Positions 8,310 to 45,794 of a stretch of 64,000 nt of DNA are shown here, one piece after another. Each line of letters begins with the position of its first letter. The stretch's first letter is position 1. Source of the stretch: an uncultured Nitrososphaerales archaeon (lineage in GTDB: Archaea > Thermoproteota > Nitrososphaeria > Nitrososphaerales > Nitrososphaeraceae); NCBI GenBank assembly GCA_963695855.1, contig CAVOHZ010000003.1:320001-384000 (forward strand). Direction: 5' to 3'. The translations under genes and the position numbers were made by a program. Below the pieces are notes generated by a model, which saw only the letters and a program-made list of their open reading frames with translations, ran no database searches and was not told the DNA's origin.

Positions 8310-9245
8310 TTACTCATTTTTTGATAATGCATTATCTGGCAAATGAGGGAAAATTTGTTTTACGTCAAGAAATCTTTTTCGTAGCGTCACAACACTCATA
8401 TTTCCTGCAGTTGCAATTTTCGATTGAGTTATTTTTTCCCCTTTTTCTAGACAGGCACCATATAAGGTAGCAACAGATAAAGCTGTTGGGTCCTTTCCAT
8501 ACGAGATAGAATCGTCGTTGATTAACCTCATCATTTCTAACGCCCTAACCATAGTTTGTCGAGTTATACCTGCTATACCAGCAATTTTTGTCATGTGAGT
8601 GGTAGAATCAATTAATGGTAGATTGATTATTAAGCGTCTAAGAAGCAGACGATAACAACGCCCTGCAAAGACTTTATCAGCATTAACAGAATTAGCTATC
8701 TCACTTATTGTACGAGGAACTTTCAGTTCTCTGCAAACCACATATACACAGGCAACAATGAATTCTTTAATAGACCGACCTTTTATTATTTTTAAGTCTA
8801 CTACCTTACGGTAATAGTATGCTGATTTTTCGATAATTGTTTCACTTAATGATAACTTATCTTTTATTCGCATTAGAATGCTAAATGCTTTCTTTAAATT
8901 TCTGTGATAGCTTCTGTTACTATTTGATATCTTGTTCCAATGACGTATCTTAACTGCTTTTGAGATTTGTTTAACGTTTAGTTGATTGCCATACGCATCT
9001 ACATTTTGTTGAGAAATTGTTGTAGACAATCCTTTATCAAAAATAAGCAGTGAATTTTTTTCCAAGTTTTGCGATCTATCAACTGAAATATCATCAGTAA
9101 CGAACTGCTCGCAATTTACTACTCCACAATTAGTACAAACTATCTCATTACTAACACTGTCAAAAACAAGGTTTGAATTTTTACAATTAAAGCAAATATC
9201 TTTTGCTGTATCTGGTTTCTGCAATTTTTCTACTAATTTACTCAC
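8310..9245 (-). CDS. tfb: Transcription initiation factor IIB (TFB) paralog
   Basis: Zn ribbon CxxC...CxxCG, DKGLSTTI, cyclin repeats GRSI / PRTISEIA / GKDP / VTLRKR. Confidence 0.93.
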   Translation of the reverse strand: MSKLVEKLQKPDTAKDICFNCKNSNLVFDSVSNEIVCTNCGVVNCEQFVTDDISVDRSQNLEKNSLLIFDKGLSTTISQQNVDAYGNQLNVKQISKAVKIRHWNKISNSNRSYHRNLKKAFSILMRIKDKLSLSETIIEKSAYYYRKVVDLKIIKGRSIKEFIVACVYVVCRELKVPRTISEIANSVNADKVFAGRCYRLLLRRLIINLPLIDSTTHMTKIAGIAGITRQTMVRALEMMRLINDDSISYGKDPTALSVATLYGACLEKGEKITQSKIATAGNMSVVTLRKRFLDVKQIFPHLPDNALSKNE

Positions 9246-9374: not shown

Positions 9375-9896
9375 GTGAAATCGGTTACACGATCCTTTAG
9401 AATTGATGATCCTCTATCTAAGATTCTAGATGAAGAAGCGGACAGAATGGGGATTTCCGTCAATGCCTTGGTTAATATAATTATTAAACAATATCTGGAT
9501 TTCACGCGTTATTTGTCAAAAATAGACATGGTTATTATTAATAGAGAGCTCTTGAAGATTTTGTTAGAATCCTTAGAAGAGAAAGAGATCTATGATATTG
9601 CAATTTTATTTGGAAGCACTACACCAAAAGATACAATATTATTTTGGAAAAAAGAACTGTCCAATCATACCGTTTTCGAATACGTTGAAAAAATTGTTTG
9701 TAGATACGGTTTGTTAGGAACGTATGATGAGATAATCCAAAATGACATGAAAACAATTGTTATAAGGCATCGACTTGGAAAAAAAGGTTCGGTCTTTTTT
9801 AGCGGTTATTTGAAATCTACATTGAAAAATACATTAGGAATAGATACATCATTAGACTTGACCGAATCATCTGTAAAAATTGAAATTAAAATATAG
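9375..9896 (+). CDS. Ribbon-helix-helix (CopG-like) domain protein
   Basis: N-terminal VTRSFRID...LDEEA...ISVNALVNII; divergent from tfb. Confidence 0.75.
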   Translation: MKSVTRSFRIDDPLSKILDEEADRMGISVNALVNIIIKQYLDFTRYLSKIDMVIINRELLKILLESLEEKEIYDIAILFGSTTPKDTILFWKKELSNHTVFEYVEKIVCRYGLLGTYDEIIQNDMKTIVIRHRLGKKGSVFFSGYLKSTLKNTLGIDTSLDLTESSVKIEIKI

Positions 9897-10534: not shown

Positions 10535-11346
10535 CCGACATCATTATTATTTGCGCAGCGAAGTAGAAAAACAATTTGGATCATTAGTAAATAAAAATTT
10601 CTAACAACAGACAAAGTATATGCTTTTATTATTGCTAACACGGTTAGATTGAGCCCTTGTAATGAATTTCAATTTTATTTAATTTGATAGATGAGTAAAT
10701 AAGCATTTTAATTCGATAGTATTTGTATTCATTAATTTCATTATTTTGCCCAAAATTACTACTCGTTAAAACACTCATCATAACTACATTATGAACTAAA
10801 AAATTGCTGATCAATAACGACAATCCTAGCTCCAGATTAATTAAATAGAAACTAATTTTTAAATATTGCAACGATTTACAAAATTTGGTCATTAAAAATA
10901 TTTAATTTTCAATTCTATCCCTGTATACGGATCGTTTTGGTAGTTGAATAAAAGTCACTAGACATGTAGCTAAAAATTAGGCAACCGCAGATCCTAGCAA
11001 ATCCAAAAGAAAAATCCGTATCAAAAACCGTTAAATAGACATATTCAATGAGTAACGCATGTTCCAACCAACCAAGAAAAATAATGAATTATTCATGTTA
11101 CGGTGATGTGCTTAGAATTAGGCCTTAAGAATGGTATCTATAAAGGGGGAGGAAATTTATATTTTATTTATACGACTTAATCTCCTCTGATATGACTTCT
11201 TGATGAAAATTATGTAGGAAATCTAACTTTGGCACTAAACGCAACTGCAGTTTTATTTCAATGTCAGTTTTAAAGTTCGATTCTAAAATTGGTATAAATT
11301 GATTTTATTTGACATTGTTTATATTGGAAAATTGATAAATGAATAC

Positions 11347-29796: not shown

Positions 29797-31392
29797 TTAG
29801 ATATAATACAATTCCCTTGTCAATATAATCTCTTTTTTGTGTTCCACAATTGGTTTGGGATAGCCTCCTACTGATTTAGTAGATTTGTCAATTGCGGAAT
29901 TAACTTTATCCCAATGATGTATTATAGTTTTAGAAACCTCTTTAAGTTCAGGAATCCATTTTTTTATATAAATACAATCGGGATCAAACTTTTTCTGTTG
30001 TAACCAGGGATTAAAAATTCTGAAATAAGGTTGAGCATCACAGCCAGTAGATGATACCCATTGCCAATTACCATTATTAATTGAGGGGTCATAATCAACA
30101 AGTTTTAACGCAAAATATCTTTCTCCATATCTCCAATCAATATGTAAATCCTTTACCAAAAAAGACGCAGCTATTAATCTCAGTCTATTATGCATAAAAC
30201 CTGTTTCATTTAGTTCTCTCATTCCTGCATCAACAATTGGAAAACCTGTTTTTCCGTTGTACCATGCCTCAAATTTCGTTGGGTCATTTTTCCATTCTAT
30301 GATGTTATTTCTATATCTTTCGTGAAAAGAAGTATGAAAGACAAAAGGAAAATGAAATCCTATATATGAAAAAAAATCTCTCCAATATAATTGCTTTAGC
30401 AAAGGATGATTATAACCTAATTCCTTCTGTATTGCAAAATATACTTCCCTAATGGAACATATCCCAAACTTAAGGTAAGCAGAAAAATGAGTTGATAGAT
30501 TGTCTAATGAATATTTTTCGTTTTCTCCCTTATCTTTTTTAAATTTATACATTAATTCAGATATTAAATCTTGATATCTTTTTCTTGTTCCCACCAGAGT
30601 TGATATTGTTAAGTCAGGATTATTTTTAGGAGCTTCTTCAGATATAATTTGCGAAAAAAATTTCTCAAGATTGTCAATTTGTTTTAAATCATTAAAACTT
30701 GTTAGTTTTTTGCTATTGAAACTCATGAATTTATTCTTGTATTTAACTATATCAAAGGAATTTTCCCTTCTTATTGGTCTCTCAATTGCTTTGTTATAAT
30801 ATTGAGAAAATACTTTAAATGGTCTATTATTTGAATTTAGTATTTCTTCTGGTTGATTAATCAGAATATCTGGACATTCAATAAATTCAATATCATGGGT
30901 TTTGCAAATTTCCTTGATCAATATATCTCTTCTTATGCTATATGGAGTATAGTCTCTATTAACAAAAATAGCTTCAACTTCCTTATCTCCTTGTATTATC
31001 GTCTTTATTACTGACCCTGGATCTCCAGCTAGAACAATTAGTTTAGAAGATATACTAATATTGTTTTTTCTTCTCTTTAATTGATTCTTTTCCATAGAAA
31101 ACTGATAAAATTGGTTTTGAAGATCTAACAATGATTCTTTTAGGAATCTTTGTAAATGAATTCTCCTCTGTTTTCGTTTTAAAAGCAGATTAGGAGCTAT
31201 TGGTAAAGAAAACGAAGAATACAATAATTTTGATGATGTTAATAAATTACTATCTAAAATGAAGAGGCAATAAACTAAACTTGAAAAATGTACTGCATCG
31301 AGCAATGCTGTATTATTTTCTAATCGTAAATCTCTTCTAAAAATAAAAATACTTTTCTTATATTTTTGTCTCATTCTGCTTTCTTGATTCAT
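29797..31392 (-). CDS. phr: Deoxyribodipyrimidine (CPD) photolyase / cryptochrome family
   Basis: FRRDLRL, WRDFF, GFPIVDAGMREL, MHNRLR, DWRYGE, NNGNWQW, RIFNP. Confidence 0.95.
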   Translation of the reverse strand: MNQESRMRQKYKKSIFIFRRDLRLENNTALLDAVHFSSLVYCLFILDSNLLTSSKLLYSSFSLPIAPNLLLKRKQRRIHLQRFLKESLLDLQNQFYQFSMEKNQLKRRKNNISISSKLIVLAGDPGSVIKTIIQGDKEVEAIFVNRDYTPYSIRRDILIKEICKTHDIEFIECPDILINQPEEILNSNNRPFKVFSQYYNKAIERPIRRENSFDIVKYKNKFMSFNSKKLTSFNDLKQIDNLEKFFSQIISEEAPKNNPDLTISTLVGTRKRYQDLISELMYKFKKDKGENEKYSLDNLSTHFSAYLKFGICSIREVYFAIQKELGYNHPLLKQLYWRDFFSYIGFHFPFVFHTSFHERYRNNIIEWKNDPTKFEAWYNGKTGFPIVDAGMRELNETGFMHNRLRLIAASFLVKDLHIDWRYGERYFALKLVDYDPSINNGNWQWVSSTGCDAQPYFRIFNPWLQQKKFDPDCIYIKKWIPELKEVSKTIIHHWDKVNSAIDKSTKSVGGYPKPIVEHKKEIILTRELYYI

Positions 31393-31668
31393 ATCAAAAA
31401 TTATATTTTATTTATAGTAATAATAAATTCATGAAATAATTTGTTCTAGTGCCCAACCTTTCATCTTTGAATTTAATAGATACAGCTACTATTTTCCACA
31501 TACATAACCAGTCATACAAAATAGGAAAAAATTAGTATCTAAATTTCAAAAACAAGAAACATCATATTTAAAATGAGTCAAAAAAATATGAGTAATAGTG
31601 CCTAATTTAGCAATTAGGTCAATAATTGAAATAAGTTATATTCTATGTTTTATTTATAGTGAATAAAA

Positions 31669-33169
31669 ATAGCTAACGAAAATTCTTCAAATATATTTGT
31701 AAAACGTTCTTTAATACCATATAACGTAAATACTGTTTTTGATTTTCATACGCGAAACGGTGCCTTAGAAAGACTTGTCCCTCCTTGGAGTGGATTGGAT
31801 ATAGTTGACCAAAAAGGAGGGATTAATAATGATGCTATTTCTATTTTTCGGCTTAATTTAGGTCCAATAACTTTCAAATGGGGTTGCTAAACATTTTGGT
31901 TACATTCACAATAGGCAATTTCAAGATAAAATGATAAAAGGTCCATTCAAAAAATGGATTCATACTCATTCTTTTATACCTCAACGGTCCAATCAATGTA
32001 TTTTAGAAGACAAAGTAGATTATGCTGCGAAATTTGGAAAAATAGAATCTAAAATAATACAAAAAAGAATCCAGAATTACCTGGATCAGTTATTTCTTTA
32101 TCGTTCTCGTATTTTAATTAGTGATCTCTATCTTGAAAAAATGGTATCGGAAAAGGGGAAAAGTATTCTTATTACAGGATCTCATGGCTTAATAGGATCT
32201 GCACTTATTCCGTTATTAACGAATATAGGTGATCATAAGATTACTCGTCTTGTAAGAAGTACAATTAATAAAAGTAATCATTCTACTTCAAATGAAGCTA
32301 ATGAAAAAATAATATACTGGGATCCTAAACATAAACAACTAAATCATCATGACCTTGAGGGGTTTGACATAGTCATTCATTTGGCAGGTGAAAATATTTT
32401 TGGAAGGTGGACAAATACAAAAAAACAAAAAATATTTGATAGTCGTGTTGAGGGTACGAAACTTTTTGTTGAGGGTACGAAACTTTTGTCTGAATCTTTA
32501 ACTAAACTATCAAATCCTCCATCATTATTAATATGTGCGTCAGCAATTGGATATTATGGAGATAAGCCCAACGAATATCTTACAGAGGATAACAATCCGG
32601 GACAAGGATTTCTATCTGAGGTATGTCAAAAATGGGAAAATGCAACACTAGATGCATCTAAGGTAGGAATAAGAGTAGTAGATACACGTTTTGGTATCGT
32701 ATTAAGTCCAAAAGGAGGAATTTTAAAAAAATAACTCACATCTTTCAAATTAGGTCTTGGCATATCAATTGGATATAAACATCAGTATATGAGCTGGGTC
32801 TCAATAGAGGACGTTATAAAAATTATTTTTTATTCTATAATAAACCCATCAATCCAAGGAGCTGTTAACGTAGTATCACCAAATCCAGCTACAAATCTGG
32901 AGTTTTCCAATATGCTCAAAAAATTATATAATACAAAGTTGTTAATATCAATCAATCAAAATATAACCGAACTCATTTTTGGACAAATGTCTGATGAATT
33001 ACTATCTACAATAGCTATGTCATTCCCAAAAAAGTTAGTTTCAACTGGATACAAGTTTTTTAATCCAGATTTGGAGGACACACTCAGATTCCTACTTGGA
33101 AAAATGAAATTAAATAATAATAATAGTCTTCAGAGATCAAATATGAAAAATCAAAACATGTCAAAATAA
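31669..33169 (+). pseudogene. SRPBCC domain fused to TIGR01777-like NAD-dependent epimerase, frameshifted
   Basis: VFDFH...ALERLVPPW upstream of 31931 in another frame; GPFKKWIHTH; ITGSHGLIG; HLAGENI; MSWVSIED; frameshifts near 31880 and 32730; start approximate. Confidence 0.8.
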
Positions 33170-33498: not shown

Positions 33499-33509
33499 AG
33501 TTGGCACTA
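33499..33509 (+). promoter_or_regulatory. Candidate operator AGTTGGCACTA
   Basis: Near match to the motif at 36757-36770 and 36919-36932; upstream of a TATA-like TTTTATAT element. Confidence 0.5.
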
Positions 33510-33558: not shown

Positions 33559-34125
33559 ATGTTGAAACATGATCACAGCACGAGGAATATAATATTATAC
33601 TCTACGTTAGCAGGATTTATATCAGCTTGGGCAATTTCAGGATTATTAGTTATTGTTGATATTATATCACAAACACCAATAGGTACGTTCTTTGCAGTAA
33701 TAGGATCATCTCTTGGTTATTATGATACCTCTGTATCACAATATATTGGATTTGCACTACATATTGCAACAGGTACTGTAGCAGGTAATATTTTTGGTCA
33801 AATAGCTTTATTTTGGAACAAACTATTCCCATATAATTTCAAATTAGGAATAACTTATGGAGTAATAGTTAGTGTTTCTCTGTGGGCAATATTATTCCTA
33901 CCTCTAGCTACATTTGTAATTCAACCCAAACTCGATGCATTTGCACTATCTGCTCCAAATCAATATCTATTTATAATAGCTAACCACTTTCAAGGACTTT
34001 ATCCACTTGTCGCCATAGGATCTTTAGGATTTCACATAATATATGGAATTGTGTTGGGATTCATGATATGGAGAATGATCGATTTAAAAGTATTTGTACC
34101 AATCAACAGAGAACCAATACAATAA
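33559..34125 (+). CDS. 4-TM membrane protein with two intramembrane His
   Basis: ALHIATG and FHIIYG motifs. Confidence 0.82.
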   Translation: MLKHDHSTRNIILYSTLAGFISAWAISGLLVIVDIISQTPIGTFFAVIGSSLGYYDTSVSQYIGFALHIATGTVAGNIFGQIALFWNKLFPYNFKLGITYGVIVSVSLWAILFLPLATFVIQPKLDAFALSAPNQYLFIIANHFQGLYPLVAIGSLGFHIIYGIVLGFMIWRMIDLKVFVPINREPIQ

Positions 34126-35818: not shown

Positions 35819-36706
35819 TCAATTATTCATTAGCGATTTCATAGTAGTAATTATATCATCAATTTTCCCGAGATCAAGATAAACCTTTTCATATTTTTCT
35901 AATAATTCAATTTGAGAGTTAGATGCTAATTTAATTGCATTACCTCCAACAACAATAGGATTATTAAAAGATTTACGAATTTCTTTTACTAATCTGGTTA
36001 CTGAACTTATATTTTCTTCTAACGTAACAGATATGATAACGAGACTGGGATTGTTATTATTCAAATACGAGTTAATAGAATTCGTTGGAAGAGGAGAGGT
36101 AATATTAAAAACTTCATAGCCTTTTTGAAGTAATAATGATTCAATGATTTTACATCCTATACTATGAAGTTCTCCTTCAGGAGTACATATTATTATTAGT
36201 TTAGGATTTAATGAATTTTTAGAAATTTTTTTATTAGCATTTTTTTGATTGATTAAATCAATTAGATTATTTACTGCATTACTGCATACATGTTCTGTTG
36301 CAACATCGATTTCTCCATTTACCCATTGATCACCTATCCTATATAATACAGGTATCAAGATTTTCTCATAAAAATCTAATAACGAATATACTGATTTTGT
36401 ATATTCATTGTATATGTTCATCAATTCATTTATTTGATACATTTTTAATCTTTCGAAAAGTGTTTCTTGTAATGTTTCATTTACTTTCATGGATTTTGAG
36501 AAATCAAGGTTATGGTGAGCCAAAAATTTTATAATTGCAGATTCATTTCGGTATTCTTCTGTAATTTTATTAATATTTATTTGAGATAGTGGACCTAAGT
36601 ATTGCTTCGTTATTTGTTGAGATGTTTGTTTTTCTTTATTCCATTTACTTTCAACAATATAAGCATAATCAATATTTTTTACTTTTTTTATTCTAATATA
36701 CACCAA
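35819..36706 (-). CDS. CarH/LitR-like cobalamin-binding protein with non-MerR N-terminal domain
   Basis: W-x9-EH (WVNGEIDVATEH), PEGELHSIG (ExHxxG), ISVT, VVGG. Confidence 0.88.
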   Translation of the reverse strand: MVYIRIKKVKNIDYAYIVESKWNKEKQTSQQITKQYLGPLSQININKITEEYRNESAIIKFLAHHNLDFSKSMKVNETLQETLFERLKMYQINELMNIYNEYTKSVYSLLDFYEKILIPVLYRIGDQWVNGEIDVATEHVCSNAVNNLIDLINQKNANKKISKNSLNPKLIIICTPEGELHSIGCKIIESLLLQKGYEVFNITSPLPTNSINSYLNNNNPSLVIISVTLEENISSVTRLVKEIRKSFNNPIVVGGNAIKLASNSQIELLEKYEKVYLDLGKIDDIITTMKSLMNN

Positions 36707-36756
36707 TATGGTATAATTTTCAACTCTTTTATTTATATTTAGTGCATAACTGAACT

Positions 36757-36932
36757 TATAGTGCTAACTAATATTTAGATAAAAGAATCCAATGTAATTT
36801 CAGAAATAATATATATAAAATAAGAAACATTGTACTAATAAATTTTAAACAGAATATTCTATAAAATAAAACTTTTATTTCTGCCATTTATTTAATAATT
36901 CAACATTTTCGTTCATAATAGTTAGCACTATA
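36757..36932. promoter_or_regulatory. Divergent promoter region with a 14-bp inverted motif pair
   Basis: TATAGTGCTAACTA (36757-36770) and TAGTTAGCACTATA (36919-36932), each upstream of one divergent gene. Confidence 0.6.
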
Positions 36933-36971: not shown

Positions 36972-37316
36972 TTGTACACTAGAGATATGAAACAGACTAT
37001 TGATTATCCACTAGAATTCTCTGTTAAGATGACTTTTGGCGAGAGTTACCTTGTAGGAAAAGCTTCTAGTAACGGTAGAAATTATAATATAAATATTCAG
37101 GGAGGACGAAAAGGAATAGTTTTACCTAGAGAAATGGTAAAAGCATTTGGTGAAGTTATTGTTAGCTTTTTTACTGAAAAGAAAAATGAGATAATGTTAA
37201 CTGCGAAAGTAGAGGCGGGTTTGGATTGGATCGAAATCTATGATGATTTCTTAATTTGGTCTTTGGCAAATGATCTCCCTATATCCATGATCATTGATTA
37301 TCAGAGATTGACCTAG
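36972..37316 (+). CDS. Hypothetical protein divergent from the CarH-like gene
   Basis: 114 aa ORF; start may be the internal ATG. Confidence 0.65.
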   Translation: MYTRDMKQTIDYPLEFSVKMTFGESYLVGKASSNGRNYNINIQGGRKGIVLPREMVKAFGEVIVSFFTEKKNEIMLTAKVEAGLDWIEIYDDFLIWSLANDLPISMIIDYQRLT

Positions 37317-37385: not shown

Positions 37386-37749
37386 GAGCTATCCCTAATT
37401 CTCATCATATATCTTTCCTGAATCTATTGTGCCATGAATTAATTCTTTCTACAACCCATCGTCTTAATGGATGTTTTCTACAAAATATTTTTTCTTCTCT
37501 TTTGTGTCGGATATGTGGAATGTATGCTCTCTTGATGATTTCTGGTTCTACATTTTTGGAATGATATGCTTTGTCAAGACATAGATTCTGTTTCTGTTTA
37601 TGCTTTGGTTTGTATGATGGTTTTTTATAACTATACTATCAACTGTATCAATTGCAACAGTAACATCGTGAGTATTTGCAGATGTTATAACAGTAGATAA
37701 TGTAATACATTCTTTATCTGTAAGAATATGTCTTTTGGTCCCTAATTTA
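37386..37749 (-). mobile_element. Degenerate IS5-family remnant related to the element at 57987-58893
   Basis: Reverse strand reads LGTKRHILTDK...LCLDKAYH...RWVVER; end sequence GAGCTATCCCTAA. Confidence 0.8.
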
Positions 37750-37953
37750 GGTTCTGTTAAGTTAAGATTATTTTACCTCCAATATTGAATAGAAATTGCT
37801 TTCTGATTTTTGCATTAGATAGAAAAAATGAATAATTTGGTCCAATTGTATACATGTTGTGGATCACATTTTATATTTTTTTCTATTACATAATAATAAC
37901 TATTAAAAAATTTATTCTATATTTGGACTGATTCTATTTTCTATGTTGAAAAG

Positions 37954-38048
37954 AATAACTGGTCCTATTTTATAGAAGGGGAAAATTCATAGAATTATGA
38001 TGGGACCAAAATTCATGTCAAATTAGTTTCACATCCCACTGGCCCCAT
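37954..38048 (+). mobile_element. Split att-like site
   Basis: AATAACTGGTCCTATTTTATAGAAGGG (24/27 identity to 28811-28837), about 50-bp insert, then ATCCCACTGGCCCCAT. Confidence 0.7.
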
Positions 38049-38109
38049 AGTGATATTAGTTCTCTAATTGGATTCACTCAAAGAAAAAGAAAGGTGAATC
38101 AAAAAAAAA

Positions 38110-38733
38110 TTGAAAATAGAACAAAAATTTGAAGAATCTAGTACATATTCACTATTCTTGTTTGCAATTAGATCAAATGTAACAAGAGACTATTATCTAA
38201 GAAGATTAAGGATTTTCTTTAATCATATTAATCTAGAACCTGATAAAACAATGGAAGAAAGATTTAATTACTTTGCTAGAAAAAGAACAAAAGATCCGAA
38301 TTGGGCATTTAATGCAGTAACAAAATTCTTGCAATTTCAAAAGGAAAGGGTTAAAATGGAAGAGATTACAGAAGCGACACTTCGTAATTTCATAAAAGCA
38401 ATAAAATTATTCTGTGAAATGTCAGATATCAAAATAGAATGGAAAAAGATAACTCGAGGATTACCAAAGATAAGAAGACATGCTGATGATAGATCACCAA
38501 CAATAGAGGAAATACAGAAAATTTGTGAATACCCTGATAGACGGATAAAAGGGATTGTCTATACAATGGCTTCATCTGGGATAAGACTTGGTGCATGGGA
38601 TTATTTATACTGGAAGGATATTCAACCAATAGAACGTCAAGGTAAAATCGTAGCAGCAAAAATTATTGTCTATGCTGGAGACGATGAAGAGTATTTTTCG
38701 TTTATAACTCCTGAAATTAGTAGTACAACCTAA
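38110..38733 (+). pseudogene. Tyrosine recombinase/integrase, C-terminally truncated
   Basis: SSGIRLGAW catalytic Arg box; lacks HxxR and Tyr; highly similar to the 47953 ORF. Confidence 0.85.
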
Positions 38734-38862: not shown

Positions 38863-40197
38863 TTATGAACCGGTTAAAATTTTTTGTTTCAACCACAATC
38901 TTTCAAAAAGTGCTATATAAGTTTGTAGATGTGTTTCTATATTAGTATGCATAGTGGTAAAAAATTCATCATTCTGTTTATCTTGTTTACCTTTTTCTAA
39001 TACCACTACTTCTTGTCTGTCTTTTATAAAAAATGAAATTTCTTCAACCTGTATACCAGGATTAACAATCTCTATCACTTCATTATCCTTCATTGAATCT
39101 ATTATCGATTTTTCAAATTTTCCTACAAATATTATTCTAATTGTTTTATTAGTTAGTGTCTTCAAATTTAAAACTATATCTTTTAATTCCTTGTAATCCA
39201 AGTATTGTGAATTTCCTAAAAAAATATCTAACTCCTCAGTAACATTCTTTATCATAGTCTTTAGAGCCGAATTAACTTGAGTACCAACTAGCTGTTCTAT
39301 AAATTCCTTGTTGGATTGTTCTTGCTGACTAGTATTTGATTGTTTATTTTTCATATATTCATCAAGTAGTACGGTATGAATTCCTCTATTTATAACGCCT
39401 AGAATTTTTATATAGTAAACAATGCTTGATAATAGGAATAAATAACTAAACGAGTAGAACATCTCCCACATCCATTCAGTATTTAGTATTAATTCGTCAC
39501 TTATTTGAGCTGCCAACGTATAACCTGCGTCTCCAATACTAAGAAATATCATGGATATTGAGAATAAGAACCAATGATAAATGTAAGGGTCTTTTTTGGA
39601 TAGACCAACTAGGTTCAGAATTGAGAGAATTAGTAATGAAATATCACCGATATAATATAATATACTATAAAGTATTTCGACCAGTTCGGTTTGAAAATCA
39701 AAATTTTGAAAATTCTGAATAAAAGGAAAAATAAGAATTAAAGGTATAATAATTGAAACAAACAAAATAATTTTTCTTTTTAATGGTTTTTTCTCTTGTA
39801 ATGTTCTAAATGAAGAATAGAGATTATAAATAAAAAATGTATATCCTATTAAAAAAATAATGTCGATATTTAATGGATACGGTACTGGATTTTTCAAGAT
39901 CAATTGATAAAATAAATATCCACCTTCTGATATTGTCCAAAATAATATTCCTAATGTGATAAACCGGATTCTTTTAAATTCGGGATTATTTCGTTTTCTA
40001 AAAAATAAGGAAATTGAAAAAATTAGACATGCTGTTAATAGTATAAAAGGAATTATATTGTTTATTTCATTTGTTCTTTTAGTATCTATCAGAAAAATTA
40101 ATACATATATAAAAAAAATAGTAACAGAAGCACCAGGAAGTATCCCAAATAAAATAAATTTAAATTCGGTATTATCTTTGATTATATATAAATCCAT
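38863..40197 (-). CDS. Multi-TM sensor-like protein with C-terminal cytoplasmic domain
   Basis: About 8 TM helices, VPYP..DI motif, ends YIALFERLW. Confidence 0.75.
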   Translation of the reverse strand: MDLYIIKDNTEFKFILFGILPGASVTIFFIYVLIFLIDTKRTNEINNIIPFILLTACLIFSISLFFRKRNNPEFKRIRFITLGILFWTISEGGYLFYQLILKNPVPYPLNIDIIFLIGYTFFIYNLYSSFRTLQEKKPLKRKIILFVSIIIPLILIFPFIQNFQNFDFQTELVEILYSILYYIGDISLLILSILNLVGLSKKDPYIYHWFLFSISMIFLSIGDAGYTLAAQISDELILNTEWMWEMFYSFSYLFLLSSIVYYIKILGVINRGIHTVLLDEYMKNKQSNTSQQEQSNKEFIEQLVGTQVNSALKTMIKNVTEELDIFLGNSQYLDYKELKDIVLNLKTLTNKTIRIIFVGKFEKSIIDSMKDNEVIEIVNPGIQVEEISFFIKDRQEVVVLEKGKQDKQNDEFFTTMHTNIETHLQTYIALFERLWLKQKILTGS

Positions 40198-40602: not shown

Positions 40603-41976
40603 TTAACTTACCTCCAATTTCGTTACGGTCTGGAGTAACCATAATTTTTCGAACGTTGTTATGTATATATAGGTTATCTCTTCGTTGTCAGAATAAGTTA
40701 CATCATACGCTGTATCCTTATTATAATCGATAAGATCCGTAGTCGAAACTAGTAGCAACTTATTATAGTCAGGCACTATCATGATATCATTATTCTCTAG
40801 TTTTCTTTCAAAGATCCGTACATGAGCAACCTCGCGATAACTATTAATAATTCTATCATCGACACCTAACGGGAAAAGAATTCTTACTAAAATATTTGAC
40901 CTTGTTTTTTTCTTCAAAAATTTTAGGATACTTTGTGTTTCTTTTCTTTTCAAGGTATTTATATTGCAGAACAAAATAGCGATCTCGTCTTTTGCGCCTT
41001 TTATTATTTCATCAATACCATTCTCAACCAATCTGAAATCTTGTATGTTTTCTTTATGCAATTGATCCTCTTCGGGAAGTTCACCTTTGTCCTTCACCGA
41101 AATATTATTCAGATATTTTGCCGCATAGTCTTCCATCATTGAATACTCCAAGTTTTCGCTTAGTATATGAGTTAGTTTGTAATACCAAAATAATGAGGCA
41201 AGAATACATAGATAGGAAAAAGCCCACATTGCTTCCCATATCAATTCAGTCTCTAAAAGAAATTCTTCATCAACAATCGCTATATTCAAATAGAAAAAAT
41301 CTGTGATAGTTGTTAATATCAGGAAAGAGGTAAATAATATCCAGTGATAGGTATAAGGGTTGTTTCTAGGTAACTTCGTTAGAATGAGAATCGAAAGAGA
41401 TAATAAAAAAATATCACTGTAGTTATTATTGGTACTAATCACAATATCAGGCCACTGGGATTGAAAATCTACTTCCTGGCTAAAAACTATGATAGTTGTT
41501 ATTACAGGTGATACAGATGCGAGTGTTATCACAAACGCAATCACCTTAGGTTTTATTAATCCATCTTTGTTTATAGTCTTAAATGATCTGTAGGTAAATA
41601 GAATTAGAGGTGCATAGCCTGCAACATAGAATATTTCCCCGACACCTGGGTATGGAGCATCCGTATCTAATACAATTTGATAAAATGAATATGTAAATTC
41701 ACCAAGAAACCAGAGAGTTATTCCTACGAAAAGCAGCTTAAATCTCTGAACTTCTTTTACTCTAGGATTTGAAAGTATTATAAACAAGGACATACAGGTA
41801 GATGATCCCAACAAAACTGCGGACGTTGTGCCTATGTATTTGTCGCCATCAATAACAAATAGTATTACATGTATAAACATGATAGCTATAGCTATAGTAA
41901 TTATAAATCCGAATAACAAATATCTCATTTCATCCTTAATTTTAAAAGCAGATTCAATATTTTTTGTTCTGCTCAA
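40603..41976 (-). CDS. Paralogous multi-TM sensor-like protein
   Basis: APYPGVGE, PYTYHW, VRILFP, YITTFEKLW align with the 38863 ORF. Confidence 0.75.
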   Translation of the reverse strand: MSRTKNIESAFKIKDEMRYLLFGFIITIAIAIMFIHVILFVIDGDKYIGTTSAVLLGSSTCMSLFIILSNPRVKEVQRFKLLFVGITLWFLGEFTYSFYQIVLDTDAPYPGVGEIFYVAGYAPLILFTYRSFKTINKDGLIKPKVIAFVITLASVSPVITTIIVFSQEVDFQSQWPDIVISTNNNYSDIFLLSLSILILTKLPRNNPYTYHWILFTSFLILTTITDFFYLNIAIVDEEFLLETELIWEAMWAFSYLCILASLFWYYKLTHILSENLEYSMMEDYAAKYLNNISVKDKGELPEEDQLHKENIQDFRLVENGIDEIIKGAKDEIAILFCNINTLKRKETQSILKFLKKKTRSNILVRILFPLGVDDRIINSYREVAHVRIFERKLENNDIMIVPDYNKLLLVSTTDLIDYNKDTAYDVTYSDNEEITYIYITTFEKLWLLQTVTKLEVS

Positions 41977-44717: not shown

Positions 44718-45794
44718 ATGAGATTTGTCGGTTCAAAAGGAATCAAATTCTCTGATATTAGTATAAATTGTTGTATTTGTTTTATTGATTTGGTCGATTC
44801 AACTAAAAACACTTTAGCGTTTTGCAATTCGAAAGATACTAGAAGATATTATGAAACCTTTATCAATTCGGTATCCGAGATAGCTAAAAAGAATAAGGCT
44901 AAAATAATAAAAAATATGGGAGATTCACTTTTATTTTACTTTCCCAAGACATCTGACAGTACAAATATCTCAGCTTTTTATGAAGCATTAGAATGTTCTT
45001 TTGAGATTCTTGACAATCGTCATAATATCAACGACAAGTTATCAAGAGAAAACTTTCCACCATTTAACTACAGAATCAGCTTGGATTATGGAGTAGTAGA
45101 AATAGCACTATCTGGAGAATATAATCAACTCGATTTGTTTGGATCAACTGTGAATTTATGTGCAAAAATTAATCAATTATCTTTACAGAATGAATTGAGG
45201 ATAGGAGATAATCTTTATAGAATATTGAACGCTTATTCTCCATTTTTTGAAAAATTATATAATTTTACCAAGTCAGAACAATATAATATCTCTTCAGATA
45301 TTAAATATTTTACATATACAATAGAAAGAAGACCATCTAAGAGTGAATATTTAAAAGATCAGGATATTTCAGATTCTAATAAAGAACAGGAAAGTCAACA
45401 AATGATTTATAGGAATTATGATCTCAGAAAAAAAGTCATTTTAGTAGATGACGATGCTGAAGTATTAACAACCATAGAATTATTTTTAATAGGACATGAC
45501 TTTTATGTTACATCCTTTATCGACCCTACTATGGCAGTAGAGTATCTGCGATCAAATCCTTTTTATCAGAATCTATTGGTAATTGCAGATATTAGAATGA
45601 GCAAATTAAATGGATTTCAACTTTATCAGCAAATCAAGAGTATAGATCCTACTATAAAGGTTCTTTTTATTACTGGTTTGTATATTGCAGATGAAATATT
45701 GACTTTGATTCCAGGATTGGACAAAGATCTCATAATAACAAAGCCTATTGATAAAGAAACATTTGTAAATAGAGTAAAAAAATTATTTTTATGA
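44718..45794 (+). CDS. Class III adenylate/guanylate cyclase fused to a C-terminal receiver domain
   Basis: FIDLVDST, KNMGDSLL, DLFGSTVNLCAKI; VDDD...ADIRM...KP. Confidence 0.9.
   Translation: MRFVGSKGIKFSDISINCCICFIDLVDSTKNTLAFCNSKDTRRYYETFINSVSEIAKKNKAKIIKNMGDSLLFYFPKTSDSTNISAFYEALECSFEILDNRHNINDKLSRENFPPFNYRISLDYGVVEIALSGEYNQLDLFGSTVNLCAKINQLSLQNELRIGDNLYRILNAYSPFFEKLYNFTKSEQYNISSDIKYFTYTIERRPSKSEYLKDQDISDSNKEQESQQMIYRNYDLRKKVILVDDDAEVLTTIELFLIGHDFYVTSFIDPTMAVEYLRSNPFYQNLLVIADIRMSKLNGFQLYQQIKSIDPTIKVLFITGLYIADEILTLIPGLDKDLIITKPIDKETFVNRVKKLFL

Follow-up and report, generated by a model that had tools for sequence, protein, structure and literature searches.

To our knowledge, B12-based photoreceptors are known almost only from bacteria, where they mostly carry helix-turn-helix (HTH) heads. 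The light-responsive B12 domains described in the available text of PMC11796333 are joined to HTH, diguanylate cyclase, biliverdin-binding/photocobilin, GAF and MEDS partners, and their signature (SignatureFinder) consists of the elements GxxW, EH, GxxH and GxxxP; the same text gives the Chloracidobacterium thermophilum protein CtMerR a MerR DNA-binding domain. Here, we describe a gene from a 64,000-nucleotide stretch of an uncultured Nitrososphaerales archaeon, a soil ammonia oxidiser (positions 320,001 to 384,000 of contig CAVOHZ010000003.1, assembly GCA_963695855.1; the whole stretch is called the window below), whose product combines a CarH-type B12 module with an N-terminal beta domain. 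We favor, with some reserve, the view that it is a one-component cobalamin-based sensor-regulator of ammonia-oxidising archaea (AOA) of the Nitrososphaerales, dependent on B12 and light, with the beta domain as its DNA-binding head. The protein joins an uncharacterised head to a known sensor module, and it comes from a domain of life for which the literature searched describes no such sensors: queries pairing CarH/LitR or cobalamin photoreceptors with archaea, Thaumarchaeota, Nitrososphaera or AOA returned no description of the family, and neither did queries on B12-binding, three-stranded DNA-binding, archaea and light, including the available text of PMC8717448.

A B12 module headed by a three-stranded domain

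The gene lies in an AT-rich window (27-38% G+C) and reads as an open reading frame (ORF) with a TTG start read as M, the protein beginning MVYIRIKKVKNIDYAYIVESKWNKEKQTSQQITKQYLG; residues 1-49 correspond to positions 36560-36706. The start position is the same across 35 homologous loci (ATG in 31 and TTG in 4), with V/T-Y-I as the next residues, and this sequence comparison leaves the TTG start well supported. The gene and the parts of its product, with Thermus thermophilus CarH abbreviated as TtCarH, are the following:

35819..36706, minus strand: whole gene of the CarH-like B12-binding protein with a non-HTH N-terminus (ORF and translation, 295 residues)
36590..36706, minus strand: beta domain at the N-terminus (residues 1-39), a basic and aromatic segment of three long antiparallel strands with YLG at its end (AlphaFold2)
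36473..36589, minus strand: conserved connector, residues 40-78, with a (D)IPxEYR motif and short helices (conservation; model helices H50-53, H56-64 and H69-75)
36254..36469, minus strand: B12-binding_2 four-helix bundle, residues 80-151 (Pfam PF02607, 8.6e-12)
36290..36325, minus strand: W128-x9-E138-H139, the CarH Wx9EH motif, with G125xxW before it (alignment to TtCarH and 8jbs)
35933..36196, minus strand: Rossmann-type B12-binding domain, residues 171-258 (Pfam PF02310, 4.2e-10)
36155..36172, minus strand: E179-L-H181-S-I-G184, lower axial His motif, GxxH (aligned to the TtCarH motif containing H177)

The C-terminal two thirds of the protein are a B12-binding module of the CarH type, in which the adenosylcobalamin-holding residues of known photoreceptors are present. 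First, W128, E138 and H139 align with the TtCarH motif containing W131, E141 and H142, and among 33 full-length family members the Wx9EH motif is nearly invariant and H181 invariant; the lower axial His lies within a (D/E)xHxxG pattern, here E179-L-H181-S-I-G184. Second, three of the four elements of the light signature are kept and are nearly invariant in the family (G125xxW128, E138H139 and G178xxH181). Third, the top match of a PDB sequence search was the light-sensing B12 domain of the Chloracidobacterium MerR-family protein (8jbs, 1.4e-11), with Thermus CarH (5c8a, 5c8d and 8c31) at ~1e-6 to 1e-7 and all matches confined to residues 109-257. Finally, Foldseek with the AlphaFold2 model of the full-length protein (33-row alignment, pLDDT 88.8) recovered 8jbs (E 4.6e-12, TM by target 0.80), the photocobilin 8j2w and many TtCarH entries (TM by target ~0.8). 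A two-copy complex prediction for the full-length protein scored 0.08 against a mark of 0.42, which gives no answer either way.

The N-terminal ~40 residues form a separate three-stranded beta-sheet domain in the slot of the bacterial MerR/HTH_17 domain. In the AlphaFold2 model of residues 1-78 (69-row alignment; mean pLDDT 86, ~95 over residues 1-40), antiparallel strands E2-9, E12-23 and E28-39 are followed by short helices, and the same strands are present in the full-length model. Residues 1-38 are net basic (8 K/R versus 3 D/E) and include 4 Y and 1 W. The beta domain is the most conserved part of the CarH-like protein: R5, K7, Y14, Y16, V18, W22, Q31, Y36 and G38, the last two belonging to the terminal 'YLG', are invariant across the 33 diverse full-length members, which reach down to ~30% identity. 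Judging by how side chains alternate within each strand, the Arg/Lys and Tyr/Trp residues would share one face of the sheet.

On the strength of the model, the N-terminal domain is not a MerR HTH, and no match to MerR, MerR_1 or any HTH family was found in the protein by Pfam or NCBIfam to E<=10. Residues 1-60 gave nothing above threshold in Pfam, and no Pfam, NCBIfam or PDB family matched the beta domain. A PDB profile search with an alignment termed A4 yielded nothing for the beta domain, its sole match being FliG (E=1.7), a chance match via the C-terminal columns of the DPANN proteins treated below; in a search of the ESM Atlas with residues 1-62, the top score of 0.78 was below the level of a usable lead. 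The initial annotation had quoted this N-terminus and described it as basic, aromatic, of beta-strand character, ending in YLG and distinct from the MerR HTH of a CarH-type sensor. The quotation matches the ORF translation exactly, and the composition given above agrees with the description, as do the three strands modeled at pLDDT ~95; the AlphaFold comparison that it had proposed against a MerR fold gave three antiparallel strands and no HTH, and the label of CarH-type sensor is borne out by both B12 Pfam domains, Wx9EH and ELHSIG.

The one hint that recurred for the beta domain, a weak match to PDDEXK_9 (PD-(D/E)XK nuclease), was rejected, as it scored 17.7 bits against a cutoff of 25.5 and the would-be catalytic D13 and E19 vary across the family.

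Distribution and origin of the beta domain

In a word-indexed search, 597 of 1944 candidates qualified as relatives at E<=1e-3. The top 120 of these 597 contain both B12 Pfam domains, with 97-100% query coverage and 71-100% identity, and the named ones among the 120 are Nitrososphaeraceae or Nitrososphaerales; some B12-type relatives are only 30-45% identical. An exhaustive phmmer search of residues 2-62 against 1.84 billion representatives recovered 102 cluster representatives at E<=1e-3, and thus the beta domain is not a chance feature. A Pfam scan of the longer 52 of these 102 found one or both B12 domains in 31 and no family in 19, the remaining two being a low-complexity zinc-ribbon protein and a fragment joined to a piece of an M32 peptidase. 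Thirteen of the 19 family-less representatives constitute a group of 163-186 residues having only the N-terminal domain in common; a profile of this group gathered 449 proteins, the named ones being hypothetical proteins of Nanoarchaeota or Woesearchaeota, and the Atlas clusters of this DPANN group of ~175 residues are mostly from Woesearchaeota.

In a species-level genome collection, we found 61 loci, 42 from Nitrososphaerales and 19 bacterial. Several metagenome-assembled genomes (MAGs) supply two to four loci, which indicates that the family is multi-copy within a genome, with some of the loci being gene halves at contig ends that are possibly counted twice. A local hidden Markov model (HMM) of the beta domain, run over the 61 loci (636 kb) and the window, retrieved 38 ORFs, all of them carH-like genes, and no second copy of the domain in the window. 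Judged from these sequences, the non-HTH B12-sensor architecture is a conserved, multi-copy family in Nitrososphaerales. A Pfam scan of 17 of the 19 bacterial relatives (all except L048 and L051) recognised MerR_1 at the N-terminus of 7, HTH_17 in 6 and no family in 4, always directly N-terminal to B12-binding_2. By position, then, the archaeal beta domain replaces a DNA-binding head, and the distinct regulator architecture put forward in the initial annotation stands as a conserved family with the beta domain in the slot of the bacterial HTH.

The source annotations of the relatives vary, including 'B12-binding domain-containing protein', 'MerR family ... light-induced transcriptional regulator' and 'methanogenic corrinoid protein MtbC1'. 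The last of these, a name given to several homologues by JGI, would imply that the protein is an MtbC/MtaC-like corrinoid protein carrying methyl groups for a methyltransferase system, as would weak NCBIfam matches to the MtgC, MtbC and MtaC models. We regard this as very improbable: the matches, at 29-44 bits, are far under the model cutoffs of 215-450 bits, no methyltransferase was found among the 18 neighbouring ORFs scanned, the CarH-specific Wx9EH is present, and the conserved N-terminal domain and the promoter motif described below would be unaccounted for in a carrier protein.

The initial annotation had further likened the sequence pattern of the beta domain to the N-terminal motif of IS1634-type transposases and to small archaeal integrase-associated domains, and had derived it from a mobile element. 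Under this alternative, a DNA-binding module of such an element (an IS1634/IS4-type transposase N-terminus or an integrase-associated domain) was joined to a B12 sensor, and, if true, the origin would strengthen the case for DNA binding. A structural lead, albeit weak, comes from the Atlas model of the DPANN protein P0228, whose structure neighbours comprise the Nitrososphaerota B12 family (TM by query 0.35) alongside two DDE_Tnp_1 transposase clusters, over residues 1-100 (TM 0.30) and 1-110 (TM 0.24). A further one is the best match in BFVD, an unnamed viral protein of 339 residues with 31% identity over 55 columns (E 0.063). The TM values are all <0.5 and below the level of a shared fold, and every sequence-level test was negative. 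None of the 52 scanned beta-domain representatives (of the 102 recovered by phmmer) has a transposase or integrase Pfam domain, and no such family matches the beta domain in Pfam, NCBIfam or PHROGs at E<=10. A tblastn search with the beta domain against plasmids and phages gave only chance matches (E=4 and E=8), and one with a DPANN member against plasmids gave no match. A profile search of proteins of 518-2000 residues, with the full-length protein first in alignment A4 and a length band starting above the B12 family, found no carrier of the beta domain at E<=10, an empty result that is weak evidence. In a search for an IS1634 transposase with which to compare it directly, three 50-kb stretches (150 of 257 kb) of plasmid pTT27 yielded no annotated one. 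The domain occurs only in carH-like genes across the 636 kb of loci and the window, and the local HMM did not detect it in the transposase and integrase remnants at 37405-38733 beside the gene. In terms of sequence, a mobile-element origin of the beta domain is unsupported, and we consider it unlikely.

The remnants themselves are of two kinds. At 37405-37772 on the minus strand, two neighbouring ORFs in different frames resemble the C-terminal part of a DDE (IS4/IS5-type) transposase (DDE_Tnp_1, 23.1 bits against a cutoff of 23) and look like a frameshifted insertion-sequence remnant adjoining the regulator locus. At 38098-38733 on the plus strand, an ORF of 207-211 residues that weakly matches a SAM-like integrase N-terminal family (Phage_int_SAM_4, E 0.015) is probably a truncated tyrosine recombinase, another mobile-element remnant.

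Promoter motif and candidate regulon

An 18-nt inverted repeat whose two arms (36757-36774 and 36915-36932) are 94% complementary lies within the 265-nt divergent intergenic region upstream of the carH-like gene. Each arm lies ~40-70 nt upstream of one divergent gene, in the same orientation relative to its own gene. The following elements were identified here and at two other promoters of the window:

36759..36767, minus strand: distal motif copy TTAGCACTA, 53-61 nt upstream of the start codon, inside the 36757-36774 arm (sequence, conserved in the family)
36738..36750, minus strand: proximal degenerate copy GTTATGCACTAAA, abutting the TATA-like box (sequence reading)
36726..36737, minus strand: presumptive TATA-like box TATAAATAAAAG, ~20-31 nt before the start codon (sequence reading)
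36922..36930, plus strand: motif copy before the divergent small ORF (motif at 2/2 homologues in other loci)
36987..37316, plus strand: divergent ORF of 109 residues and no family, candidate regulon member (ORF)
33501..33509, plus strand: motif copy 50-58 nt upstream of the DUF6789-like membrane protein gene at 33559-34125 (motif at 9/10 homologues)
31447..31456, minus strand: one-base-longer variant TTGGGCACTA, 55-64 nt upstream of the photolyase gene at 29797-31392, minus strand (sequence)

We scanned for the motif with IUPAC and regular-expression patterns and took significance from shuffles. A degenerate pattern was found in 35 of the 36 family promoters, at -61 to -70 in 30 of them and at -48 to -50 in 5 from a Nitrososphaera clade, which have the variant TTAGCACGA; L028 has a further variant missed by the pattern. 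In 15 of the 36 promoters, a second copy, TTAGGCACTAA(A/G), abuts the TATA-like ATAAATAA. Paralogues within one genome (loci L001-L045) differ in this respect: one has a single TTGGCACTAG site and the other TTAGCACTAT plus a TATA-abutting TTAGGCACTAAA, which suggests sub-functionalised copies with a common core motif.

The exact motif TTRGCACTA showed a marked excess over expectation. The window has 5 exact matches versus 1.1 expected, a number reached by none of 100 shuffles, and the archaeal loci together with the window (427 kb) have 120 versus a shuffle mean of 10.2 and maximum of 19, with 50 of the 120 located in promoters of the family itself; 2 matches occur in the 209 kb of bacterial loci. 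Downstream of 96 matches, an ORF starts within 130 nt, and these ORFs group into recurring families: the carH-like proteins, DUF6789-like membrane proteins, two small membrane proteins, an NDH-2-like pyridine-nucleotide oxidoreductase, a cyclase-like protein, the small divergent ORF and photolyase. In the window, the five sites are found before the carH-like gene, the divergent ORF, the DUF6789-like gene (33559) and a receiver-domain gene (11299), and within one gene. The photolyase was identified by Pfam, and the same longer variant occurs 63 nt upstream of the photolyase in L003, the only other one among the loci (1/1). Upstream of the homologues of the adjacent convergent NmrA-like gene, the motif is absent (0/4).

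This distribution bears on a further alternative, namely that the beta domain is a protein-interaction or oligomerisation head and the protein a B12-dependent partner or antirepressor of another factor that binds TTRGCACTA. AerR/PpaA-type B12 proteins act as partners or antirepressors of other transcription factors. Such a role would fit with the lack of any recovered DNA-binding fold for the beta domain, with the 4 of 17 bacterial relatives that have no recognised DNA-binding domain, and with the occurrence of the beta domain at the head of the DPANN family of ~175 residues with its unrelated C-terminus. Nevertheless, the slot is filled by an HTH in 13 of the 17 bacterial relatives, the domain is strongly basic and contains Arg/Lys and aromatic residues that are invariant, the motif stands at 35 of 36 own promoters, as expected of an autoregulated DNA-binding regulator, and no conserved neighbouring transcription factor appears among the motif-linked gene families. 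We judge an interaction head to be improbable and retain the DNA-binding head as the preferred reading.

The divergent ORF likely starts at ATG 36987 rather than at TTG 36972, going by its homologues. It contains a segment, …GGRKGIVLPREMVKAFG…, which may resemble the AbrB/SpoVT-type swapped-hairpin DNA binders. The cyclase-like genes with the TTRGCACTA motif, coding for 235 residues, are found in the Nitrososphaera-clade loci L026-L031, and the window itself has a gene at 44718-45794 (plus strand) for an adenylate/guanylate-cyclase domain joined to a receiver domain. These observations hint that the sensor may be connected with nucleotide second messengers.

Other neighbours in the window, at 38863-40197 and 40603-41976 on the minus strand, include two multi-pass membrane proteins of ~450 residues; these tandem paralogues have a soluble domain at the C-terminus and match no Pfam family. 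At 31931-32734 and 32789-33169 (plus strand), consecutive ORFs have an NAD-dependent epimerase domain and then DUF1731; these domains usually occur within a single protein, and the pair at 31931-33169 may represent either two genes or a single one that has been split or frameshifted. A TFIIB (TFB) homologue (8310-9245, minus strand) and a ribbon-helix-helix protein (9375-9896, plus strand), ~27 kb away, represent ordinary archaeal transcription machinery.

Proposed mechanism and comparison with known systems

In the mechanism that we propose, the basic and aromatic face of the beta domain (R5, K7, Y14, Y16 and W22) would contact TTRGCACTA just upstream of the gene's own TATA-like box and at the promoters of the photolyase, the DUF6789-like membrane protein and the small divergent ORF. 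By analogy with CarH, oligomers of the B12-loaded protein would sit on these sites in darkness; light would drive off the upper ligand, alter the assembly and release or remodel the promoter complex, such that photoprotection and repair genes would respond to light. At the gene's own promoter, the proximal copy occupies the position of the archaeal TFB recognition element (BRE), which would fit autorepression; at the other promoters, a single copy ~20-30 nt upstream of a TATA-like box would also allow activation. Two traits make such a sensor plausible: Thaumarchaeota synthesise cobalamin, and light inhibits their ammonia oxidation.

If true, this would extend the sensor class to ammonia-oxidising archaea, key soil nitrifiers affected by light, and open a molecular route to the light sensitivity that has long been observed in archaeal nitrification. 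It would also furnish a candidate new DNA-binding domain with a predicted operator for testing, and a compact new green-light module for optogenetics. Going further, we tentatively entertain the idea that the beta domain is an undescribed archaeal DNA-binding fold, common to the Nitrososphaerales B12 sensors and the DPANN proteins and possibly an ancient relative of a transposase N-terminus, and that the protein belongs to the first light-sensing transcription-factor system of ammonia-oxidising archaea, reading TTRGCACTA repeats beside the TATA box and switching on photolyase and membrane-protection genes.

Several points weigh against the proposal of a light-dependent DNA-binding regulator. 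To begin with, we infer both the DNA binding of the beta domain and the response to light. The Foldseek comparison suggested in the initial annotation produced no significant relative, hence no known DNA-binding fold: with the 78-residue model, there were 0 matches at E<=1e-3 both in PDB (best E 0.53) and in BFVD (best E 0.063), and the top PDB matches (PC4, Pur-alpha, AFT2 and PI-SceI among them; E 0.53-1.2) were beta proteins that are unrelated or bind nucleic acid only in a loose sense. As for the motif, the fifth exact match in the window (49173) is intragenic, the site before the receiver gene at 11299 recurs at 0 of 1 homologue, and the TTRGNCACTA variant is not enriched in the window (2 matches, reached by 24 of 100 shuffles); the link from motif to protein is guilt by association, and another factor could bind the motif. 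With respect to the B12 module, the NCBIfam CarH equivalog (NF052513) scored 48.5 bits against a cutoff of 400, aligning over residues 57-259 only, with residue 57 at profile position 69, past the MerR part. Further, the GxxxP element reads N201-I-T-S-P205 (NxxxP), with N201 in at least 90% of the family, and the position of TtCarH H132 is a Val.

The last two features are those that would be expected if the protein sensed cobalamin availability or redox state rather than light, with the same architecture and DNA binding and with ligand loading as the signal; the motif-linked NDH-2-like oxidoreductase and cyclase-like proteins, which have no obvious link to light, point in the same direction. 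Against this stand the retention of Wx9EH, GxxW and GxxH, the closest solved structures, all of which are light sensors, and the presence of the motif at both photolyase genes, and we consider a non-light signal quite unlikely. The B12 module is of the photoreceptor type, with photochemistry that is not necessarily that of TtCarH and may differ from it owing to the Val at the H132 position. Because of the N in place of G within GxxxP, a strict search with the published signature would miss the family and, if light sensing by the family is true, overlook real candidates.

We close by comparing the light-sensing regulator proposed here with known systems, beginning with its head. AP2/ERF domains, the arm-binding domains of the Tn916 and lambda integrases and the N-termini of IS1634/IS4 transposases have a small three-stranded sheet that reads DNA with Arg/Lys and aromatic residues. 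The archaeal strands, at 8-12 residues, are unusually long compared with such beta-sheet DNA-binding heads, and none of the latter was recovered by Foldseek against PDB or by sequence and profile searches. The head is shared with the DPANN (Woesearchaeota/Nanoarchaeota) hypothetical proteins of ~175 residues, whose N-terminal domain, M-F/Y-I-R-I-K-K-x-K-x-x-x-Y-A-Y-L-V-E-N-x-W...Q...Y-L-G, has the same invariant residues; the C-terminal halves of these proteins are unrelated, lacking B12 domains and matching no Pfam family.

With the CarH/LitR proteins (e.g., TtCarH, PDB 5c8d/5c8e), the archaeal protein shares the two-part B12 module, an N-terminal effector domain in the equivalent position, a gene beside light-protection genes and apparent autoregulation through repeated operator-like sites. 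It differs from them in having a three-stranded beta sheet where CarH has a MerR winged helix, and an archaeal host, which places it in a TATA/BRE promoter context. Relative to TtCarH in particular, it has ~20% identity over the Foldseek-aligned B12 module, with Val for H132 and NxxxP for GxxxP. CtMerR (8jbs/8jbt) is the best sequence and structural match to the B12 module, and TtCarH H132 is missing in both proteins; the difference lies again in the head, MerR in CtMerR and the beta domain in the archaeal protein. Among other B12-domain fusions, no beta-sheet head of this kind is included in the partners named in the available text of PMC11796333, and the archaeal protein resembles the fusions described there in deploying the B12 module as a portable light-sensing block with varied outputs.

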